Shown here piece after piece: positions 668 through 45,830 of a stretch of 64,000 bases of DNA (position 1 is its first letter; each line of letters opens with the position of its first letter). The position numbers were made by a program, and so were the translations under genes. The DNA comes from an uncultured Dehalococcoidia bacterium (GTDB taxonomy: Bacteria; Chloroflexota; Dehalococcoidia; Lucifugimonadales; CATQGZ01). The stretch is taken from the NCBI GenBank assembly GCA_958295685.2, contig OY282365.1, forward strand, positions 702,975 to 766,974. Reading direction: 5' to 3'. Under the pieces are notes generated by a model. The model made no database searches and was not told the origin of the DNA. It saw only the letters and a list, made by a program, of their open reading frames with translations.

Positions 668-1224
668 CCAATCCTGCCCAATCCTGAGAATCCTGATTCA
701 GACAATCAGACTCTCCGAGACCCGAAAGGACGAGTCCAGAACGGTTCTCCCCCTCTGGCTGACCACTGACCACTGACCACTGTCCTTGACGACGCCGAAC
801 CGCTGTGCTAGAGTATACCCATGACACAGCCAGCCAATCTCCACGACCAGCCCGCGCGACTCCCTGAAGCGCCTGTCGGACAAGTGTCGGATAAGTGTCG
901 CAAAGTGTCGTATTAGTGTCGTATTAGTGTCGGAAAACTGTCGGGTAAGTGTCGGATTCTGTCGGCCAAAATCGGCCCTCTCAGCTACGAAATGCCCGCA
1001 AATACGACACTTTCGCCGAAAATCACCCGGAGCCGCGGCCTTGGGCCGCCGGACGCAAGGCCCGGCCCGTTGCGGACCCCTGTCCCACAACTGCCCCGAA
1101 ATTGTTCCGGTTCTGTTCCACGTCTGTTCCACAAATGCCCCACATCTGTCCACAAATTCAAACCCTCAGCTACGAGACGGAACAAAATGGAACAGTTTGG
1201 GACAGTTTTCGGGAAAATCCACCC
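668..1224 (+). repeat. R1: promoter-bearing intergenic repeat element with two TGTC-array modules
   Basis: The element contains AATCCTG boxes (668-708), CTGACCA x3 (759-782) and a promoter (786-814). Array 1a has 9 units with a GTGTCG core (872-967), then CCCTCTCAGCTACGA (977-990), an inverted unit at 1001-1013 and TTTCGCCGAAAATC. Array 1b has TGTCCC/TGTTCC units (1078-1160), then CCCTCAGCTACGA (1163-1175), inverted units at 1179-1205 and TTTTCGGGAAAATC. Homologous elements lie at 10738, 16691, 29322 and 45577. Confidence 0.8.
786..814 (+). promoter_or_regulatory. sigma70-type promoter TTGACG-17 nt-TAGAGT inside R1
   Basis: TTGACG lies at 786-791, followed by a 17-nt spacer and TAGAGT at 809-814. 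An ATG sits 6 nt downstream at 821. Nearly the same promoter and spacer recur in R3, R4 and R5. Confidence 0.6.
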
Positions 1225-10737: not shown

Positions 10738-11139
10738 GAGAGAATTTTTCGCGGGATCTGTAACGCCTGAAGGTCATTTGGGGGTCGTTTCGTAGCTGTG
10801 GAGGGCGGATTGGGGCGATTTTTGGGTTACAATTAGTGACACGTATGTGACAGTTTTGTGACAGATATGTGACACTTTTGTGACACTATGTGACAGATAT
10901 GTGACACTTTGTGACAGGTGTCCGGGAGGCCGAGCGGCGGGTGCGAGCCGGGCGTGGCTGCGTCGAGACAGCCGGGGCATTGGGGGCTGGCCTGGAGAGG
11001 GTCATCGTGTCTTCTCCTTGTGTCGAGGTGGAGTTGGCGGCCGGTCATGGCCATATCGACGAACATGATTATACAGGCGCAGAACAGGGGTGTCAAGGGT
11101 GGCGGGGGGACTGTCTGAATCAGGATTCTCAGGATTGGG
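10738..11139 (-). repeat. R2: promoter-bearing intergenic repeat element (TGTCAC array)
   Basis: In minus-strand orientation the element has AATCCTG boxes (11114-11139), a promoter (11068-11096) and 8 units of 10-11 nt with a TGTCAC core (10836-10918). These are followed by CACAGCTACGA (10789-10799) and GCGAAAAATTCTC (10738-10750). Confidence 0.75.
11068..11096 (-). promoter_or_regulatory. perfect consensus promoter TTGACA-17 nt-TATAAT inside R2
   Basis: In reverse complement, 11091-11096 reads TTGACA and 11068-11073 reads TATAAT, with a 17-nt spacer. It points toward uvrB. Confidence 0.6.
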
Positions 11140-16690: not shown

Positions 16691-16987
16691 GGTGATTTTT
16701 GCTGAAAGTGTCGGATTTGCGGGCATTTCGTAGCTGGGAGGTGCGATTTTGGCCGACACTATGCGACACTCATGCGACACTCATGCGACACTTATGCGAC
16801 ACTTATGCGACACTTATGCGACACTTTGCGACACTTATGCGACACTTTGCGACAGGCGATGCAGGAGTCCTGCGGGCTGGTTTGTGGAGAGAGGCGGCTG
16901 TGTCATGGGCATACTCTAGCACAGTGGTTCGGTGGTGTCAATTGTCTGAATCAGGATTCTCAGGATTGGAGGATTAGCAGGATTGGG
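16691..16987 (-). repeat. R3: promoter-bearing intergenic repeat element (GTGTCGCAT array, 10 units)
   Basis: In minus-strand orientation the element has AATCCT boxes (16946-16987), a promoter (16913-16941) and ATGACACAGCC. Ten units of 10-11 nt with a TGTCG core follow (16751-16856), then CCCAGCTACGA, an inverted unit (16705-16717) and CAGCAAAAATCACC (16691-16704). Confidence 0.8.
16913..16941 (-). promoter_or_regulatory. promoter TTGACA-17 nt-TAGAGT inside R3
   Basis: In reverse complement, 16936-16941 reads TTGACA and 16913-16918 reads TAGAGT. The spacer ccaccgaaccactgtgc is nearly identical to those of R1 and R5. Confidence 0.6.
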
Positions 16988-28690: not shown

Positions 28691-29107
28691 CTAGTGGCCG
28701 CCGCAGGCGCATCCGCCGCCGCCACCACTGCCGCAGCCGCCTCCTCCGCCACCGCCACCGCAGCCTCCGCCTCCTCCACCGCCGCAGCCGCACCCGCCGC
28801 CCGCGGGCTGGTTGGGGTTGCTGATGGTGAAGCCGCTGCGCATCAGTCCGTCGACGTAGTCGATCTGGGCTCCCTCGACCATGGGAGCGCTCTCCGGGTC
28901 GACCAGCACGCGGATGTTCTCGGCTTCGATCACGATGTCGTCTTCCTGAGCCTTCGCTTCGACTCCCATCGAGTACTGAAGCGCCCCATGGGGTCCGGGC
29001 ATGACCATGACCCGGAGCATCGAGCCTGCGCCGCCCTGCTCTTCGAGTATGGCCTCGAGCCTCTCAGCGGCTTGTGGAGTGACGTCTACGATTTGGGTCG
29101 TCGTCAA
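28691..29107 (-). CDS. HesB/IscA-like Fe-S assembly accessory protein with a Gly/Cys-rich C-terminal tail
   Basis: The TTG start at 29107 has a GGAGGTG RBS. MTTTQIVDVTPQAAERL…IDYVDGLMRSGFTISNP is IscA/HesB-like. The C-terminus reads GGGCGCGGGGGGGCGGGGGGGGCGSGGGGGCACGGH. Confidence 0.75.
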   Translation of the reverse strand: MTTTQIVDVTPQAAERLEAILEEQGGAGSMLRVMVMPGPHGALQYSMGVEAKAQEDDIVIEAENIRVLVDPESAPMVEGAQIDYVDGLMRSGFTISNPNQPAGGGCGCGGGGGGGCGGGGGGGGCGSGGGGGCACGGH

Positions 29108-29321: not shown

Positions 29322-29565
29322 CGGTTTTCGCCGAAAACTGTCCCAAACTGTTCCATTTTGTTCCATCTCGTAGCTGAGGGTTCGATTTCGCGGAACAAAT
29401 GTGGGGCATTTGTGGAACAGTTCTGGGACAGGTCTGGGACAGGTCTGGGACAGATGTGGGACAGGGGTTGGCTGCTGCTGGGTTGACTGCTTCCATGGGG
29501 GAAGTGTAGTACAGCAGTTCGGCGTTGTCAAGGGGTGGATTGGCGGGATTGGGGGCGATTCGCGG
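29322..29565 (-). repeat. R4: promoter-bearing intergenic repeat element (TGTCCCA/TGTTCCA array)
   Basis: In minus-strand orientation the element has CCAATCC boxes (29533-29565), a promoter (29503-29531) and an array of CTGTCCCAGAC-type units (29392-29466). CCCTCAGCTACGA (29368-29380), inverted units (29338-29364) and a perfect 7-1-7 palindrome GTTTTCG-N-CGAAAAC (29324-29338) follow. The 3' module matches 1120-1224 of R1 at most positions when aligned by eye. Confidence 0.8.
29503..29531 (-). promoter_or_regulatory. promoter TTGACA-17 nt-TACACT inside R4
   Basis: In reverse complement, 29526-29531 reads TTGACA and 29503-29508 reads TACACT. The spacer acgccgaactgctgtac resembles that of R1. 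An ATG lies 6 nt downstream. Confidence 0.55.
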
Positions 29566-30196: not shown

Positions 30197-30637
30197 CTAC
30201 CCGGCCAGGTCATTGATAACGTCGGAAATGTACTGCCGCAGCCACGGCTCCGGCTCAGAATGCGGTCTCAGGACGTCAAGCAAGTCGGAGTCACCCCACG
30301 ATTCCGCCGCCTGCACAGCGGCGTCTCTGATCTCTATATCGTCAGCAGCCAGGCCGCCGCGCACCAGCCCTACACGCCATGAGACTGTTCCCGCGCTGTC
30401 ATGGCGCCCCAGGCACCTCAGAACCGACGCGGCGAAGCTGGGCTGCGAAGCGTCGGTACAGAAAGCCCTCAGCCAATCAAGAACCTGTTGGTCCTTCGCG
30501 GATTGCAATGCTTCGGCGATGATCTCCTCGGTCGGGTGATCCATTCCGTCTTCAATAGGACGGTCTTCGAGGGCCGCCCACAGCTTATCGGCGAGACGCT
30601 CTGGTGAGTTCTTATAGCGGCGCCGCTGCTGCTGCAT
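30197..30637 (-). CDS. hypothetical protein (helical, HEAT-like by eye)
   Basis: This 146-aa product lies downstream of mod and is tightly linked to 29690..30193. I recognise no family. Confidence 0.55.
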   Translation of the reverse strand: MQQQRRRYKNSPERLADKLWAALEDRPIEDGMDHPTEEIIAEALQSAKDQQVLDWLRAFCTDASQPSFAASVLRCLGRHDSAGTVSWRVGLVRGGLAADDIEIRDAAVQAAESWGDSDLLDVLRPHSEPEPWLRQYISDVINDLAG

Positions 30638-30709
30638 GGGTTCCCCTCTCCAGACTATTCTTGCAGACTTGGGATGCCGGGGTCTATCGGTGAGATTCGC
30701 CTTCGGTCC

Positions 30710-33700
30710 TCACTCGACGCGGAAGACTTTGAGCACCTCGTCGCCGAGGTGGTTGATGACTTTGACAGCGATGCGGCCTGAGGCGGGTTTGTGGAATGGG
30801 CGGGAGACGGCGCTGTGGAGGGTTGCCCAGGCGTCGGCGTCGATCTCGGCTTTGAGGGTGGTCCTCAGCGACTTGTACGGATCGCTGGCTCCCAGGAAGT
30901 AGGCGTGTCGTACGAAGAAGGCCTCTTCGTTGTAGTCGGTATCGATGAACCAGCAGGCGATGCCCTCCGGCCCGTCGCTGCGCACCTCGCCAGTGTTTGG
31001 GTGGAAGACGTCTACGCCGTGGACGGTTACCTGTGACCAGTGGTCAGTGGAGAGTGGAGAGTGGAGAGTGACTTCATCAGCCCGTTCAGCATCCTGTTTA
31101 TCTCGGCGCAGCTGAGCAACAAGCTCTCGGAAGCCTCTCTCGATGCCAGTTCCAGCCTTTCGCACAAGGTCAGAAACGTTTCGAGTTCCGCCAGCGAGCC
31201 CCGCGCAACGCCAAGCGAGTTGAGAAACTCCCCCGTCGTCCTCCTTGCCTGCCCTTCCGCTATGTTCGCGGGTATCGAGGACGCCGCGCGCCGCATCTGC
31301 GAGGTAATCCCAAATCTCTCTTCGGCAGGAAAGCTCCGAGTAAGCGTGTATATCCTCACTGTCAAGTCGATTGATTTCTGCCAGACTATCAAGTCCCGAT
31401 ACGAGCTTAAAGATCTCATAGGGTGCAACTCGCCTGTCTGAATTGTCCACCAACCACTCTTCACTGGCCACTGTGATGTCCGGCTCTCCGAATATGACGA
31501 ACAGGTTGCCTTTGCCGGTGTTCTTGAGGTCGTCGGCCATGTGGAGGTCGGCGTTCATGCGCGCCTTGAGCACTGGGACGCGGCCCAGGCTTTCGAATTC
31601 GGTGGTGTGGGCCTCGTAGTTGAAGGCGCAGGCGATCAGGAGGTCGAACCCGCCGTCGGCGGCCTCGCGGGCGGCCTGCACGAGGTCCGGGCGGGAGACC
31701 GTGCCGAACTCGGGGCCGATGAAGACCGCGGCGCGGCGCCGGACGCCGTCTTCCTCGCCGCCCTCCGGGTACCAGCCCTCGGCGCACACCAGCCGGCCAG
31801 GCCAGTGGGAGAGCGAGGTGAATTCGATCCGGTCTTCCCTGTGGGCCTGCTGGACGCCCGCGCGCTTCAGGTTGTCGAGGATGACCTGCGTGAAGTCGTA
31901 CTCGCTGCCGTAGCCGTTGGCCTGCTCCGCGATGACGTCGCCGTTCTCGTCGACTCCCAGGACGCGGTGGGGCGAGACGCTCTCGACGGTGAAGGGGCCT
32001 GCGACGCGGACCTTGCCCCTGTCCTCGTAGGGCTTGTCGTAGAGGTATTCGTGGTCGGCGCGGGCGGCTATGGATGCGTCTATGCGCTTTTGGCGGGCGA
32101 TGCGGGCCTTCCACCACTGGGCGTGGGCGTCCCTGGCGTCCTGGGGCCAGCCCTCGTCGGCTTCGCGTGGGACTTCCCACTCCTCCCAGCCTGCGCCGAG
32201 GGCCGAGTTCAGCCGCTCGCGCAGCGGCTCCAGCTTCTGCTGGAACGACTCCCATATGACGTCGATCTCCGCGTTGTTGGCGATGGCGCGCAGGGTGACG
32301 TGGGGGACGCGCTCGTAGACGAAGCCCTGCCTGACGTCACCGTAAGCGGCGGCCTGAGAGGGCGACCTGTGGGCGACTTCCGCCTCCTTGCGCTGCCCCT
32401 CGGGGCTGTCGGCCAGCAGGTAGTACGGGTACCGCGCGCCCATGACGCGGGCGCGGGCCAGGGCGAGGGCGACGCGGGAGGTGTCGATGGTTATCCAGCG
32501 GCGGCCCCACTGCTCGGCGACGTATGCGGTGGTGCCGCTGCCGCAGGTGGGGTCCAGCACGAGGTCGCCGGGGTCGGTGGTCATGAGGATGCAGCGTTGG
32601 ATGACCTTGGTTGAAGTTTGGACAACGTACCTTTTATCGCTAGCAAATCCTGCTATAACTGTGTCAGCCCATAGATTCGACAACTTCTTTGCCGCAAAAT
32701 CATCAACTTTCCGAACGTAATACAACTTCCTAGAAGTCTTGGCAATGCGATTGGCCTTCTTGAGATTTTCCATCCCCTCCTCATTAGTTTTCCAGCTCCC
32801 TCTGTCGATAGGAAAAGTCTGGCCACAAAACTCGACATCAAAGCGACCAGTTACGCCTCCACTTTGGCTTACCAGGTTATCATAGCGATACACGCTAGAG
32901 CTTTTGGGAATCTCAACAGTCCCTTCCCTTTCTTCCTTGGTCAACGGTCTATGTTGAAGGTCATCGGTGACGAGCATCCGGTAAGCATTGTCACCTCCAT
33001 CGTAATTACTCTTTTCAACTAGCGGCTCACGATATTTGATGGAATCGTGGTTCTTGGCGAACCAAATTATGTAGTCGCTGGCTTTATCAAGTAGTTCGTT
33101 TCCAAGGCCTGATGTTGTGACATAGCTGATCAGGCTTACAAAATTCTTATCCCCGAACACCTCGTCCATCAGTGCACGGACGCGGTGGACGTTCTCGTCT
33201 CCGATCTGCACGAAGATGGAGCCGGAGTCGGCGAGCAGGTCACGCGCCACGGTCAGGCGGTCGCGCAGGTAGGTCAGGTAGGAGTGGATGTTGTCGCGCC
33301 AGGTGTCTCGGAAGGCCCTCACCTGCTCCGGCTCGCGGGTTATGTGGTCGCGGTTGCCGTCGCGCACGTCGCGGCTGGTGGTGGACCACTGGAAGTTGGA
33401 GTTGAACTTGATGCCGTAGGGCGGGTCCAGGTAGACGCACTGGACTTTGCCACGCAGCCCTTCGCGCTCGGCGAGGGATGCCATGACCTGGAGGCTGTCG
33501 CCGAGGATCATGCGGTTGGACCAGTTGGCGTCGTGCTGGTAGAACTCGGTCTTGGCGTTCTCGGACGGGAGGCCGTTGAAGTCGGCGAACAGGTCTGCGA
33601 ACCCCTGCTGCGGGTTTTCACTCTCCGGCCCGCGCTGTTCCGCGGTGCGGCGCATCAGGTCGTCGACGAGGACTTTCGGGTGCAGCCGCTCCTGTACGTA

Positions 33701-33931
33701 GAGAGGCGGGGCGTCGACCACGAGGTCGGATGAGTCCAGTTCGTCCTTGCCGCGCCAGACGAGCTGGGGGTCGAGGTCGCGGCTGCGGCGCTGGTAGGCG
33801 AGCCTTATGGGGCTGCGCTCGTCCTCCCGCATGAGCGGCTGGTGCTCGGCGGAGGGGAGGTTCCTGCGCCGGGCCTCCTCGTGTGTGAGGGTCTCGACGG
33901 ACTTTGGCTGTTTGGCTCGCTCTCTTGGCAT
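30710..33931 (-). CDS. mod: Type III-like DNA methyltransferase (Mod; beta-class N6A/N4C) carrying an internal ~145-codon insertion
   Basis: A GGAGG RBS precedes the ATG at 33931; the longest ORF starts at 33973. Motif IV (VYLDPPYGIKFNS) comes before motif I (LDPTCGSGTTAYVAEQWGRRWITID). A G+C-poor central TRD spans about 32600-33160. The conserved C-terminal region GNLFVIFGEPDITV//VTVHGVDVFHPNTGE is interrupted at 31038-31473. Confidence 0.85.
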   Translation of the reverse strand: MPRERAKQPKSVETLTHEEARRRNLPSAEHQPLMREDERSPIRLAYQRRSRDLDPQLVWRGKDELDSSDLVVDAPPLYVQERLHPKVLVDDLMRRTAEQRGPESENPQQGFADLFADFNGLPSENAKTEFYQHDANWSNRMILGDSLQVMASLAEREGLRGKVQCVYLDPPYGIKFNSNFQWSTTSRDVRDGNRDHITREPEQVRAFRDTWRDNIHSYLTYLRDRLTVARDLLADSGSIFVQIGDENVHRVRALMDEVFGDKNFVSLISYVTTSGLGNELLDKASDYIIWFAKNHDSIKYREPLVEKSNYDGGDNAYRMLVTDDLQHRPLTKEEREGTVEIPKSSSVYRYDNLVSQSGGVTGRFDVEFCGQTFPIDRGSWKTNEEGMENLKKANRIAKTSRKLYYVRKVDDFAAKKLSNLWADTVIAGFASDKRYVVQTSTKVIQRCILMTTDPGDLVLDPTCGSGTTAYVAEQWGRRWITIDTSRVALALARARVMGARYPYYLLADSPEGQRKEAEVAHRSPSQAAAYGDVRQGFVYERVPHVTLRAIANNAEIDVIWESFQQKLEPLRERLNSALGAGWEEWEVPREADEGWPQDARDAHAQWWKARIARQKRIDASIAARADHEYLYDKPYEDRGKVRVAGPFTVESVSPHRVLGVDENGDVIAEQANGYGSEYDFTQVILDNLKRAGVQQAHREDRIEFTSLSHWPGRLVCAEGWYPEGGEEDGVRRRAAVFIGPEFGTVSRPDLVQAAREAADGGFDLLIACAFNYEAHTTEFESLGRVPVLKARMNADLHMADDLKNTGKGNLFVIFGEPDITVASEEWLVDNSDRRVAPYEIFKLVSGLDSLAEINRLDSEDIHAYSELSCRREIWDYLADAARGVLDTREHSGRAGKEDDGGVSQLAWRCAGLAGGTRNVSDLVRKAGTGIERGFRELVAQLRRDKQDAERADEVTLHSPLSTDHWSQVTVHGVDVFHPNTGEVRSDGPEGIACWFIDTDYNEEAFFVRHAYFLGASDPYKSLRTTLKAEIDADAWATLHSAVSRPFHKPASGRIAVKVINHLGDEVLKVFRVE
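31027..31419 (-). CDS. four-helix-bundle protein (23S rRNA intervening-sequence protein family) nested in the mod ORF in another frame
   Basis: MRSLSSYRDLIVWQKSIDLTVRIYTLTRSFPAEERFGITSQMRRAASSIPANIAEGQARRTTGEFLNSLGVARGSLAELETFL is the characteristic signature of the four-helix-bundle family. It is on the same strand as mod with a frame offset of 1. The longest ORF starts at 31464. Confidence 0.8.
   Translation of the reverse strand: MRSLSSYRDLIVWQKSIDLTVRIYTLTRSFPAEERFGITSQMRRAASSIPANIAEGQARRTTGEFLNSLGVARGSLAELETFLTLCERLELASREASESLLLSCAEINRMLNGLMKSLSTLHSPLTTGHR
31038..31473 (-). mobile_element. inserted cassette carrying the four-helix-bundle gene, bounded by 12-nt inverted repeats
   Basis: The plus strand reads cagtggtcagtg at 31038-31049 and cactggccactg at 31462-31473. 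These are inverted repeats matching at 11 of 12 positions. A GTGGAGA x3 tract lies at 31049-31069. G+C content is lower than in the flanks. The 13-mer CCACTGACCACTG also occurs in R1 (763-775). Confidence 0.45.
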
Positions 33932-33936
33932 GGGGG

Positions 33937-34377
33937 TCAGGCCTCCGTTGCGGGGTGAATGTTCCTGACGCATCTGGCGATCACGTCGCCCATGAGCTGC
34001 GCCTCCGGCGCGCTGCCCGGAGGCAGCCCCAGGATTTCACTGTGTGACGGATCGGCTTCGAATTCGGCATCCGCGTCCAAGGGGCTGTGAACGAAGCGAA
34101 TGCCATCGAGGCCGCCGCCGATGCGTTCCCGCGTCTCCCCTACGTTCAACTCGGCAAACCGGTGAGAGTGTCTCAGAGTCAGTCGAATCAGGCGTCTGAC
34201 CTCATTCAGTTGCTGGGACTTCGACTGGCCCCTGAAGCAATCGAGCCAGTTGACGGAGAGGCCCTGTTCCCCGTCCTTGAGCAGGAAAGCGGAGCCGTCC
34301 AATCTTCCGTCACGGATCTGGGTCTGTTTGGCATGGCGAACTACGCTGTCTTCGTTGGGCAGGTCGCGCCCGGTCAC
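33937..34377 (-). CDS. hypothetical protein (146 aa) immediately upstream of mod
   Basis: The GTG start at 34377 overlaps the upstream stop (GTGA). The product reads VTGRDLPNEDSVVRHAKQTQIRDGRLDGSAFLLKDGEQGLSVNWLDCFRG…. The stop lies 5 nt before the mod ATG. The longer ORF to 34554 overlaps the upstream gene. Confidence 0.6.
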   Translation of the reverse strand: MTGRDLPNEDSVVRHAKQTQIRDGRLDGSAFLLKDGEQGLSVNWLDCFRGQSKSQQLNEVRRLIRLTLRHSHRFAELNVGETRERIGGGLDGIRFVHSPLDADAEFEADPSHSEILGLPPGSAPEAQLMGDVIARCVRNIHPATEA

Positions 34378-34940
34378 CGGTTCACCAGAGGCGTGAGGTC
34401 GAACTTGTGGATCCGTTCCTTCATCCCATCCAGAGTGTCCGTTCCCGCAAGGCGTTGGACTTGTCTGCCGGCCTGCTGCTTGAAGATCACGAACGTTATC
34501 GACCCGCCGCCGAGGAAGTGGAGGCCGAGATGATCCTCCCCGTCGCCGTCCCACACGGCACGGAGGTCTCCGTTATCCATCGCCACCAGCCCCGCGCGGC
34601 GGGTAAAGCCGGCCGACTTCATGAACTTCCAGAAGTCCGCTTCAGAGGCCTGGCTGATGGTGAATCCTTCCTCTGCGGCGTATGTTCGAAGCTCGTCGAT
34701 ACGGAGCTCGTAGGCGAGCCGGATGCTTGCACGTTCGGCAGACTCTGCTAAGAAACTGAGTGTGTCAGATAAAATCTTCGGCGTAGTATTCAGGATGACT
34801 CTATACGTGTGTCTGCTTGAAATATCCGTGTGCAATGGCACGTCTGAGTCATCACTAACCGGATTATAGATAGGAGGCGATTCACGCTCGCGTGGCCGGA
34901 GGCGGGGCTCTGTGAGAGCCGTGGATGCCGTCATGGTCAT
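34374..34940 (-). CDS. hypothetical protein (188 aa)
   Basis: The ATG overlaps the stop of the TIGR04255-like gene (ATGA). The region encoding the N-terminus is G+C-poor. I recognise no family. Confidence 0.6.
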   Translation of the reverse strand: MTMTASTALTEPRLRPRERESPPIYNPVSDDSDVPLHTDISSRHTYRVILNTTPKILSDTLSFLAESAERASIRLAYELRIDELRTYAAEEGFTISQASEADFWKFMKSAGFTRRAGLVAMDNGDLRAVWDGDGEDHLGLHFLGGGSITFVIFKQQAGRQVQRLAGTDTLDGMKERIHKFDLTPLVNR

Positions 34941-35734
34941 TGTGGTTCCTCTGTCAGCTTCCAGTGTTCACGCTGAATGTTCGAGTCCGTTATGCGCACA
35001 AAGGAATCAATGATGTGGTCGTGTGCGCGCTCAAACCACTTGTCTGCCACGGACTTCGCAGCCAATTCGAGTGGTCCACCCACTTTGATCTCGAAAACCA
35101 GCATCGGGTTGTCCGGCTTCTCTGTGGCCGGTCCGCTTCGGATCGCTATACCCACCCCAAGGTCGGCTTCAATCCTGTATCCGTATTGGCAATTGAACTC
35201 CGAAGGCATAGCGACGTCGGCATCACGTAACGGAGTCGAGAACGCTGGGATTATCCTGGCGGTGTCATCCGGCCCATCCCAGAACTGGCATCTCTCTATG
35301 GTGTTGACATAGGTGAGTTCGCACATGCCGATGGAGGGCCTGGGCAGATTGACTTCGGTTCGGACGAATTCGTCGAAGAGACCGTAGTACCTGTCGAAGG
35401 TAGGTTTGATGTCTCTATGGAACCGGGGGTACTTCTGTGACTTTCGGCGGCGCCAATTGAGTATGAAGGCACTCTTCTCAACTTGAATGACGTATGTGTC
35501 ATCTTCAGAGACGAACCAGTATCTGGGCATTGGGAACATCTCGTTAGAGACCGCATCCGTTGCAGGCGCCAGTGGAGGGACCAGTGGTGGTTGTTGCCGC
35601 ACGACGGGGAATTCGCGTTTTATCTTCTCCCAGAACAGGCCAACGTGCTCGCTGCGGAAGTCGTTCAGGTGTGGATTGAAGTATGCGGCTATAGCTACTT
35701 CGTTTATCGGCGGATTCTCGAAGGCTATGGGCAT
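34937..35734 (-). CDS. TIGR04255-like uncharacterised protein (265 aa)
   Basis: The N-terminus (MPIAFENPPINEVAIAAYF) and the length resemble the TIGR04255 conserved-hypothetical family as I remember it. The gene is G+C-poor. Confidence 0.55.
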   Translation of the reverse strand: MPIAFENPPINEVAIAAYFNPHLNDFRSEHVGLFWEKIKREFPVVRQQPPLVPPLAPATDAVSNEMFPMPRYWFVSEDDTYVIQVEKSAFILNWRRRKSQKYPRFHRDIKPTFDRYYGLFDEFVRTEVNLPRPSIGMCELTYVNTIERCQFWDGPDDTARIIPAFSTPLRDADVAMPSEFNCQYGYRIEADLGVGIAIRSGPATEKPDNPMLVFEIKVGGPLELAAKSVADKWFERAHDHIIDSFVRITDSNIQREHWKLTEEPQ

Positions 35735-35781
35735 CTTGCCGTCTCAGCGTTCCCTTCTTTGCTCAGCGTGCGCCATGCGCC

Positions 35782-36054
35782 TTAGTCATAGACTGGCCTG
35801 TACTGTACTGAAGCAGGCAGGTTTATCGGCGGCGCCCCTACCCGCCTTATCAGGTACGGGCCGCGCCCGAATCGGTGGACAGCGTCCTGGGCGGCCTCCT
35901 CAAACGATTCGTACGCGCCCACCAGCTTCCCACCGTGAAAGACTACCCACGTGCCGAAGTGGTCGGTCTCCAGGACATCGCGCATCTCTTCATACGCCGC
36001 TATCTGACTGCTGAGTGTGGCCACGGCGTCATTCTCCATGTTCACCTCACGCAT
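35782..36054 (-). CDS. small DUF5678-like protein (start uncertain)
   Basis: The sequence reads …HFGTWVVFHGGKLVGAYESFEEAAQDAVHRFGRGPYLIRRVG…. Possible starts are a GTG at 36066, an ATG at 36054 (after GGGAGG) and an ATG at 36039 (after GAGGTG). Confidence 0.55.
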   Translation of the reverse strand: MREVNMENDAVATLSSQIAAYEEMRDVLETDHFGTWVVFHGGKLVGAYESFEEAAQDAVHRFGRGPYLIRRVGAPPINLPASVQYRPVYD

Positions 36055-36124
36055 CGAGCCTCCCACATATGGGTATTAAGTATAGACAACCAGCCATCGG
36101 GGTCAAGCTCTTGGAGGGCAACCA

Positions 36125-45576: not shown

Positions 45577-45830
45577 CAATCCTGATTCAGACAACCCTTG
45601 ACGACCCCGAACCGCTGTGCTAGAGTATCCCCATGACACAGCCGACTCTCTCCACAAACCGCCCGCAGGACTCCCGAACGCCTGCGGTGACCTGTCAGAT
45701 AGTGTCAGATAAGTGTCAGATAAGTGTCAGACGAGTGTCAGAAAGTGTCGGATGAAAAGCAGCCCTCTCAGCTACGACTCAGCTACGGAGAAGCCCCGCA
45801 AAATCTGACACTTTCGCAAAAAATCTCCCC
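45577..45830 (+). repeat. R5: promoter-bearing intergenic repeat element (GTGTCAGA array)
   Basis: The element has CCAATCCTGATTCAGACA (45577-45594), a promoter (45598-45626) and ATGACACAGCC (45633). Six units of 10-11 nt with a TGTCAGA core follow (45691-45754), then a duplicated CTCAGCTACG (45767-45787), an inverted unit TCTGACACTTT (45804-45814) and CGCAAAAAATCTCC. Confidence 0.8.
45598..45626 (+). promoter_or_regulatory. promoter TTGACG-17 nt-TAGAGT inside R5
   Basis: TTGACG lies at 45598-45603 and TAGAGT at 45621-45626. The spacer accccgaaccgctgtgc differs from the R1 spacer at 1 nt. Confidence 0.6.

Follow-up and report, generated by a model that had tools for sequence, protein, structure and literature searches.

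A probable 23S-IVS-type four-helix-bundle cassette nested out of frame in a Type III mod gene, with the host frame kept open across it

We analyzed a 64,000-nucleotide stretch of contig OY282365.1 (assembly GCA_958295685.2, positions 702,975 to 766,974) from an uncultured Dehalococcoidia bacterium, hereafter the window, and in particular its mod gene, which is predicted to encode the methyltransferase of a Type III restriction-modification (R-M) system. Our analysis makes it probable that a segment of about 438 nt within mod is a selfish cassette of the type known as the intervening sequence (IVS) of 23S rRNA, seated in a hairpin turn of the Mod protein, and that the mod frame has been kept open across it. 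From 5' to 3', the cassette consists of a heptamer arm, a leader with a Shine-Dalgarno (SD)-like site, a gene for a four-helix-bundle (4HB) protein and a second heptamer arm (Table 1). An initial annotation, made from the letters alone, had described an uninterrupted mod frame of 1087 codons, and the open reading frame (ORF) listing bears this out, with no stop between 33973 and 30710 on the minus strand. It had also placed a 4HB gene out of frame inside mod. The product of this gene matches PF05635 across the whole model (positions 1-106 of 106, E=2.4e-38), TIGR02436 (E=9.8e-38, 128.7 bits, cut-off 24) and the pentameric four-helix bundle XCC0516 (PDB 2GSC, E=2.9e-23).

As had been proposed, the segment splits a conserved block of Mod, GEPDITV being parted from VTVHGVDVF by residues 836-981 (146 codons, 438 nt), and it is poorer in G+C than the flanking mod sequence (0.50-0.62 vs 0.64-0.75). 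Its boundaries are accurate to within a few nucleotides, and it takes the place of about 27-31 nt that code for a β-hairpin turn (LDADDGQ in alleles that lack the insert, hereafter empty alleles). The mechanically called nested ORF (31464..31027, minus strand, 145 aa) begins at GTG 31464, upstream of an ATG whose position as the 4HB start is conserved among cassettes. Other cassette copies have GGAG or GGAAGG at the position of the SD-like AGGCGAG found here, and the TAA stop of the 4HB gene overlaps mod codons Q981-V982. We found no sigma-70-like promoter or terminator in a scan of 30600-31800. The further cassette copies that the initial annotation had suggested seeking are absent from the window, where tblastn recovers this 4HB gene only.

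To place the insert relative to its host gene, we compared the 120 best Mod homologues. About 85 of these carry an insert at the same codon (68 of variant A, ASEEWLVD..., and about 16 of variant B, ASGQWLV...), and the filled proteins, at 1007-1139 aa, have 146-155 extra residues at the insertion point. In the 35 empty homologues, of 921-983 aa, the sequence at this point is GEPDIDI-LDADDGQ-IQVKVNGVDVF, a short hairpin with a 7-residue turn, which is the empty site that an alignment of mod homologues had been expected to reveal. From this comparison, the cassette is an insert and not a native Mod domain. The initial annotation would have abandoned this reading had Mod homologues contained a mod-frame segment of similar length and conserved amino-acid sequence. 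Such homologues do exist in a formal sense, but they do not refute the reading, as they hold the same +1 4HB ORF and the variation inside their segment follows the 4HB frame.

At the DNA level, all eight insert-bearing genome loci that we compared retain an open mod frame and an intact +1 4HB ORF from the conserved ATG, with a GGAG-like site upstream of that ATG in seven and 5-13 third-frame stops inside the 4HB gene. The titles of the contigs concerned name Lentisphaerales, Chloroflexota, Dehalococcoidia, Balneolales, Gammaproteobacteria and Arenicellales. Two alleles (L013 and P0119) have internal deletions that ruin the 4HB gene and keep the mod frame.

Two irregular groups of alleles were also seen. 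In database proteins P0123-P0127, gene calls jump between the mod and 4HB frames within the cassette, and P0125 has a greatly expanded LHSPLST array; if these are not errors of assembly, they are genuine alleles altered by frameshift or slippage. In loci L081-L085, the mod gene with the closest 4HB relative (85% identity) is further disrupted, immediately upstream of the cassette, by an inserted DDE transposase, and the host frame of the cassette is still open.

The initial annotation had judged so long an open stretch in the non-native frame unlikely to be accidental. Across the nested cassettes whose DNA was examined, the host frame is free of stops in 23 of 23, and the third frame has 5-19 stops. 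Our control set comprised 80 sampled 4HB relatives (43-69% identity) from metagenomes, chosen regardless of context. In 15 of these 80, no stop interrupts the host-equivalent frame within the 4HB gene, and the other alternative frame is open in none. Long ORFs enclose nine of the 15, and the count of the other six lies within chance expectation. The 65 sampled relatives outside ORFs have 1-14 host-frame stops, with a mean of 4.3 and never zero, which sets 0/65 against the 23/23 nested copies and agrees with the earlier judgment. When synonymous 4HB codons were resampled with the gene's own usage, a conservative null model, the host frame was open in 5% of trials for the window copy and in 0-20% across the 23 nested copies. 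In an ascertainment check of 80 loci, we found no cassette that splits a gene with its host frame closed, and apparent cases were really intergenic copies ahead of the start of the next gene. We conclude that the open host frame in nested copies is likely under selection. Empty alleles, open nested frames, in-frame deletions and purifying selection downstream of the insert together uphold the earlier suggestion of a mobile cassette across which selection keeps mod translatable.

To ask what each frame is selected for, we measured mean pairwise differences by codon position. Inside the cassette, the values at 4HB codon positions 1/2/3 are 0.14/0.16/0.38 for variant A and 0.22/0.16/0.48 for variant B. 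At mod codon positions 1/2/3, they are 0.117/0.072/0.439 over the 95 codons downstream of the insert in insert-bearing alleles and 0.179/0.164/0.472 upstream of it. Because flank substitutions follow the mod frame, the Mod sequence downstream of the insert is still under selection, and the Mod C-terminus beyond the cassette is probably still made and used. For cassettes at 77% nucleotide identity, amino acid identity is 75% in the 4HB frame and 57% in the host frame, and the host-frame peptides of nested copies are rich in G, S, R and D and poor in hydrophobic residues. From the codon-position variability and these identities, we therefore propose that the 4HB gene is functional and that the host frame inside the cassette is essentially only kept open. 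The codon-position pattern is the strongest available argument for ribosome read-through.

The distribution of the insert among Mod alleles bears on its mobility. Filled and empty alleles do not form separate clades. Measured over 485 conserved columns outside the insert, the A-type allele P0002 is 91.8% identical to the empty allele P0092 and 94.4% identical to the B-type allele P0016; the median identity among A-type alleles is 76.9%. The intermixing of filled and empty alleles, together with the swapped ones, leads us to reject a single ancient insertion that founded one filled clade. Two loci from one metagenome, ERZ21829562, L174 (variant A) and L175 (variant B), have flanks that match at 94-98% identity for 900 nt on the upstream side and 315 nt on the downstream side, while their cassette interiors are 64.5% identical; the shared sequence spans ATTTCAGTGGCCAGTG at the left, resumes at ACTTGACACAGGTTATTGTCCAC at the right and extends into the first and last heptamers. 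Because these flanks are nearly identical while the interiors differ, we conclude that the cassette has been exchanged between mod alleles, with break points in the outermost heptamers. Filled alleles were not found in plasmid and phage collections.

The replaced hairpin turn varies in length among empty alleles, and the Mod encoded on the Gemmobacter fulvus plasmid NZ_CP076367.1 (L173) has an unrelated 60-aa insert at the same β-hairpin turn, a loop that is a general hotspot for insertions. An AlphaFold2 (AF2) model of full Mod (md4cbe3053676; predicted local distance difference test [pLDDT] 58, predicted template modeling score [pTM] 0.33) is too poor to place the insert reliably; it has strands at 832-842 and 975-985 that flank the insert, as would be expected of a hairpin stalk.

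The ends of the cassette are heptamer-periodic and mutually complementary. The inverted 12-mers that had been pointed out at 31038-31049 and 31462-31473 do match at 11 of 12 positions and form part of these longer arms, and the reported terminal tandem repeat is AGTGGAG x3.6 at 31046-31070 (Tandem Repeats Finder, period 7). A heptamer pattern search of the 3' arm gave 7 matches vs 0.17 expected. The two arms are paired in the minimum free energy structure of the element, with a duplex free energy of -42 kcal/mol for the window copy and of -26 to -51 over ten Mod cassettes, all of which have arms that pair. Standard pairs occupy 73% of positions in register, about 30% out of register and 70-75% at a shift of ±7 nt, as a period of seven predicts, and compensatory changes on both sides are seen in eight pair columns. 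A comparison of cassette families gives stronger evidence. Mod cassettes are built on the heptamer AGTGGNC, L151 on GGGGACT, L117 on GGCAGTA, L139 and L162 on GCGAATA, L169 on GCGAGCA, and L128 and L155 on GTATGCA, and in each cassette family compared the two arrays are reverse complements of each other. Because the heptamer differs between families while the arms stay complementary, this pattern indicates selection for pairing, as RNA or as single-stranded DNA, and not for a fixed protein-binding sequence.

Periodicity of this kind extends beyond Mod, with lag-7 identity of at least 0.7 in both flanks of 36 of 74 sampled relatives against a background of 3% of windows. In variant B, the stem reaches over the SD region of the 4HB gene, which pairs with the 3' arm. 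The fold of the whole element as RNA has a z-score of -0.88, which is not significant, and only the terminal stem is informative. RNAduplex with long flanks does not discriminate in G+C-rich DNA, and because a reversed-arm control gave nearly equal energies, we rely on the register and covariation counts and on the lag-7 periodicity as evidence for the arms.

The 13-mer CCACTGACCACTG from one cassette end recurs at 763-775, as had been noticed, within a (CTGACCA)x3.4 array. This array (759-782, plus strand) is perfect, stands alone in apparently intergenic DNA and has the same unit as the cassette 3' arm. An inverted partner was sought within 600 nt of it and none was found; the array may be the leftover of another cassette end.

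ORF-containing IVS elements of 23S rRNA are found in Leptospira, Coxiella burnetii and Brucella, in helix 9, 25 or 45; they measure about 0.4-0.75 kb, contain an ORF called 'S23p' and are excised by RNase III without re-ligation. To our knowledge, the PF05635 'S23p' proteins and the IVS elements have had no accepted role or mobility mechanism since the 1990s. The Coxiella IVS, of 428-444 nt with a 28-bp terminal stem, encodes a protein of the 4HB family and sits in place of a small tetraloop in helix 45 of 23S rRNA, where RNase III cuts it (PMC4990558). Besides Coxiella, Leptospira and Salmonella also have IVSs of the 23S type that RNase III cleaves (PMC4990558). The cassette in mod has an ORF of the same family (PF05635/TIGR02436), nearly the same length as in Coxiella (438 nt vs 428-444 nt) and complementary termini that form a long stem around the ORF, and it likewise replaces a short host loop. 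The IVS-like structure that the initial annotation had envisaged is supported by arms that pair and covary and by a relative of the same architecture in a genuine 23S rRNA gene: L107, whose 4HB gene is 51% identical, lies in a bacterial large subunit rRNA gene (Rfam RF02541, 1513 bits) and has arms of 58 nt, (GGGGCGA)n, that are 86% complementary. Nine of the 80 sampled relatives reside in ORFs, one in rRNA and the rest in intergenic DNA, which makes residence in an ORF (9/80) commoner in this sample than residence in rRNA (1/80).

The cassette also departs from the 23S IVSs. Its host in the window is the protein-coding mod ORF, not an rRNA helix, and one of its frames is open in phase with the host, which makes the region dual-coding. 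Excision without ligation, harmless in rRNA, would sever the mod message. Heptamer-array arms and allele-to-allele exchange are, as far as we found, undescribed for IVSs, and the literature searched, which largely omits subscription journals, contains no description of IVS/4HB cassettes in protein-coding genes.

Several other known systems share features with the cassette. Rickettsia palindromic elements (RPEs), reported by Ogata et al. in 2000, are said to be translated inside host proteins, and like them the cassette would be selfish palindromic DNA that lies in frame in ORFs and is tolerated by read-through at the protein surface; in-frame insertion and inverted ends are observed here, and read-through is predicted. 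RPEs are about 100-150 bp long and have no coding capacity, whereas the cassette has in its second frame a conserved 4HB gene that is under purifying selection, and most host genes found for it are defense methyltransferases. With inteins and homing group I introns it shares a conserved site in a useful gene, filled and empty alleles, spread between alleles and a host function that is kept, but it lacks splicing motifs, a ribozyme or a recognizable endonuclease, and the insert most likely stays in the protein. No intein Hint blocks were found in Mod, where the insert runs from A-S-E-E to W-S-Q and is followed by V and where PF01555 is the sole Pfam family in 1087 aa. Rfam likewise gave no match to 30800-31700 at E<=1, group I and group II introns included. 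The Avd protein of diversity-generating retroelements has a homologous four-helix-bundle fold, but scores of our 4HB protein against Avd models are weak and fall far below cut-off (NF033474, 27.9 bits vs 80; PF22296 bAvd, 29 vs 40), and Pfam scans of eight neighboring ORFs of the window found no reverse transcriptase.

Two further comparisons concern the repeats. Some Type III mod genes are phase-variable through simple-sequence repeats, and the cassette resembles these in that a mod ORF of Type III contains tandem repeats with a unit length not divisible by three; here, however, the repeats are cassette arms, and no frame-shifted allele was seen in the DNA examined. The short tandemly repeated repetitive (STRR) sequences of cyanobacteria are heptamers. 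Tandem heptamer arrays link the cassette to these and to the repeats of Xanthomonas and Nostoc, and a cassette in leuS (L151) uses GGGGACT/AGTCCCC. The Xanthomonas/Nostoc repeats, GGGAATC / GGGGAYT, include many convergent inverted pairs in Xanthomonas (PMC4692102). That work treats them as G-quadruplex-forming and mostly intergenic and draws no link to 4HB genes or to residence in ORFs (PMC4692102).

To find other host genes, we searched the host-frame peptide exhaustively against 1.84 billion representative proteins and inspected the nested metagenome loci. An exhaustive search was needed, as a word-indexed one gave 7 matches and missed the query's own protein. The hosts found comprise distant subfamilies of this Mod that share its insertion site (31-37% identity; P0258, L094 and L095), classical Type III Mods (P0283/L088 and P0291/L089), an MmeI-type enzyme (P0289/L092), methyltransferases like DrmMI of DISARM (defense island system associated with restriction-modification) or like Type IIG enzymes, in which the insert lies between the (S/A)YYTP motif and DPACGSGH (P0262/L087, L110 and L169), the PglX protein of bacteriophage exclusion (BREX) systems (L103, L128 and L155), and leucyl-tRNA synthetase, encoded by leuS, after the editing domain (L151). 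In these other hosts, the 4HB gene is always in the +1 frame relative to the host gene.

Short in-frame inserts that consist solely of the two inverted heptamer arrays were also seen, namely SGQWPVDSGGKKLTTHHSSLTT in the upstream Mod ORF of L094 and GLGTGDWGLG in L151 upstream of the main leuS cassette. They look like cargo-less versions of the cassette, an analogue of ORF-less IVSs, and would fit an RPE-like definition. A DUF559 / MTES_1575 endonuclease-like domain is embedded at about 2570-2890 of L095 (aa 287-393 of the Mod ORF) and at aa 6-104 of P0260, and is a second passenger in distant Mod genes that carry the 4HB cassette.

Taken together, the data lead us to the following proposal. 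The cassette consists of a PF05635 gene of roughly 120-130 aa with its own SD and ATG, set between inverted heptamer arrays that can pair into a stem of 25-35 bp. Inside an mRNA, it could not be removed as harmlessly as an IVS is from rRNA. Instead, the host frame (-1 relative to the 4HB gene) is kept stop-free and the length is a multiple of three. Ribosomes on mod would read through, adding about 146 mostly hydrophilic residues that loop from the hairpin, and would go on to the conserved C-terminus; the 4HB protein would be translated from that transcript too, starting internally in the +1 frame. A cassette of this kind would cost its host little and travel with a frequently transferred defense gene, persisting since it leaves a useful and often transferred gene unbroken. 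The stem would be an ancestral feature that may be cut by RNase III or may serve exchange at the DNA level, and spread would occur by recombination between mod alleles, with the outermost heptamers as break points.

Several points weigh against this proposal. Nested copies are partly recognized by their open host frame, and the check for closed frames sampled 80 loci. In an mRNA that is being translated, a long stem should attract RNase III and hinder ribosomes, and the SD-like site of the window copy, AGGCGAG, is weak. The variant-A cassette and its flanks have diverged similarly, at about 77% nucleotide identity, and because of this equal divergence most copies are presumably old residents. 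AF2 gives the host-frame peptide 836-981 a helical fold at pLDDT 60-87, above most of the methyltransferase core, which could mean that the peptide is more than a passive linker; these helices, on which we do not rely, may be spurious, with covariation from the overlapping 4HB frame carried over into the alignment of the host frame. Finally, read-through translation, activity of the enlarged Mod and 4HB synthesis are things that we infer from sequence, as are internal 4HB initiation, any function of the stem and any biochemical role of the 4HB protein.

We considered alternatives to this proposal. The most substantial of these, which we entertain only tentatively, makes RNA processing the point of the arms: as an RNase III site they would allow a cleavage that frees a stable 4HB mRNA and severs the mod mRNA, and the cassette would thereby switch or attenuate Mod (and Res) expression in a race with ribosomes that melt the stem, a role compatible with read-through. 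It draws on the long covarying stem, the homologous cassette with the same arms in true 23S rRNA, the RNase III cleavage of such IVSs in Coxiella, Leptospira and Salmonella (PMC4990558), the pairing of the variant-B SD region with the 3' arm, which suggests that 4HB translation depends on opening of the stem, and the lack of an internal promoter-like site in the promoter scan. Cleavage alone, however, leaves unexplained the stop-free host frame, the in-frame deletions and the selected Mod C-terminus, and complementary arms could equally act at the DNA level. Removal of the cassette from Mod by RNA splicing, by translational bypassing between the arms or by protein splicing seems to us quite improbable. 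The stem would bring both junctions together, these junctions (ACA/GUGG...UCACAG/GU) loosely resemble intron boundaries, and precise excision would leave Mod in frame; but such removal needs no open host frame, which is open in all 23 nested copies, and exact excision would delete the hairpin turn common to all empty alleles. The lack of intein motifs, of an extra Pfam family in Mod and of an Rfam intron match argues in the same direction.

The heptamer arrays might instead form a contingency locus, in which gain or loss of 7 nt shifts the mod frame and toggles the R-M system. The perfect (AGTGGAG)x3.6 array inside mod, array lengths that vary up to the great expansion in P0125, and the frame switches of P0123-P0127 would suit such a locus, which we nevertheless hold to be unlikely. 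All 10 mod loci with DNA are in frame and thus give no sign of switching by repeat number, and a tract of three or four imperfect units is short for slippage to be efficient. Metagenome assemblies are the source of the frame-switching proteins, which may reflect sequencing errors, and the arrays are also found around intergenic and rRNA copies, for which reading frame does not matter. Scarcely credible, in our assessment, is that the segment is a native Mod domain with an incidental or decaying 4HB overprint, or that mod is a pseudogene left open by chance, even though many homologues have a similar mod-frame segment, AF2 gives that segment a moderately confident fold, and a single copy would have an open frame with a probability of about 0.05. 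The full-length PF05635 match, variation that follows the 4HB frame, empty alleles 92% identical to filled ones outside the insert, cassettes of the same type in unrelated genes, intergenic DNA and 23S rRNA, and the strong purifying selection on the mod flanks all argue against this.

Beyond the window, we lean slightly towards a broader view in which one mobile family has two harmless modes of residence, excision by means of the stem in rRNA and a 'translationally transparent' state in ORFs, with one frame open in phase with the host and the 4HB gene in the next frame. Its preferred homes would be defense methyltransferase genes (Type III/IIG R-M, BREX PglX and DISARM DrmMI), it would move as cassettes by recombination within the heptamer arrays, and its Avd-like 4HB protein would drive movement or modulate defense. 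Residence in defense methyltransferases provides a tractable setting for the role of IVSs, with filled, empty and swapped alleles and with methylation or restriction as a read-out. The cassette is also a clean natural case of same-strand dual coding, over about 120-145 codons and in many lineages, with one frame used for a protein and the other essentially for staying open; this is useful for the study of overlapping genes and for gene callers, whose output mostly includes only a single ORF of the pair. Type III, BREX and DISARM methyltransferases that are about 150 aa overlong or that have an unknown domain may hold a passenger gene, and inverted heptamer arrays may be cassette ends, which would explain some heptamer repeats in bacterial genomes.

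Table 1. Coordinates of the cassette, its parts and its host locus in the window.
Feature	Coordinates	Strand	Remarks
mod, Type III R-M methyltransferase	30710..33973	-	1087-codon uninterrupted ORF; PF01555; PADLOC MTase_III
Cassette (insert), about 438 nt	31034..31471	-	filled vs empty alleles, protein and DNA level
5' arm, GTGGCCA GTGAAGA GTGGTTG GTGGAC	31445..31471	-	heptamer-periodic; pairs with 3' arm
SD-like AGGCGAG	31429..31435	-	9 nt upstream of 4HB ATG; 5'-end alignment
4HB gene, PF05635/TIGR02436, 130 aa from conserved ATG (MRSLSSYRDL...)	31027..31419	-	+1 frame relative to mod
3' arm, CACTCTC CACTCTC CACTCTC CACTGAC CACTGGTCA	31034..31070	-	heptamer-periodic; complementary to 5' arm
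Putative host-frame read-through, Mod codons 836-981 (ASEEWLVD...HWSQ)	31031..31468	-	stop-free; weakly conserved
Mod C-terminal 106 codons downstream of cassette	30710..31030	-	strong purifying selection in insert-bearing alleles
Candidate gene for the Res subunit of this system, 1047 aa	36125..39268	-	PF04851 ResIII and PF19778 RE_endonuc

The assignment of the host gene rests on several matches. The mod product matches PF01555 (E=3.3e-34) and the PADLOC MTase_III model PDLC03632 (1366 bits), and its relatives in the PDB are the Type III Mods 6K0W and 4ZCF (EcoP15I Mod). In the Mod translation, VYLDPPYG (the DPPY motif) precedes DPTCGSGTT (FxGxG), the order of a beta-class N6/N4 methyltransferase. 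A partner Res with helicase and endonuclease domains at the same locus, as a Type III Mod has, is provided by the candidate res ORF, and related loci have res-PIN-mod synteny. Between res and mod of the window (33937-36066, minus strand) lie three or four small ORFs with no Pfam or PADLOC match; in three close systems (L174-L176), this interval holds a single PIN-domain gene. Within mod, the block at 32600-33150 (about aa 275-455) has a G+C of 0.44-0.49 vs 0.65-0.75 and corresponds to the poorly conserved middle of Mod; it is probably a target-recognition domain gained through recombination.

Elsewhere in the window, 11-mer tandem arrays occur at 873-957, 10836-10917, 16754-16854, 29413-29465 and 45693-45753. 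Most have related units (TGTCGGATAAG, its complement CGACACTTATG, and GTGACACTAT), the unit at 29413-29465 is TGGGACAGGTC, and the arrays are a separate dispersed repeat family of this genome. A 138-aa ORF at 28691-29107 (minus strand) ends in a long Gly/Cys-rich C-terminal tail that derives from a GCC-type trinucleotide tract (28697-28801).

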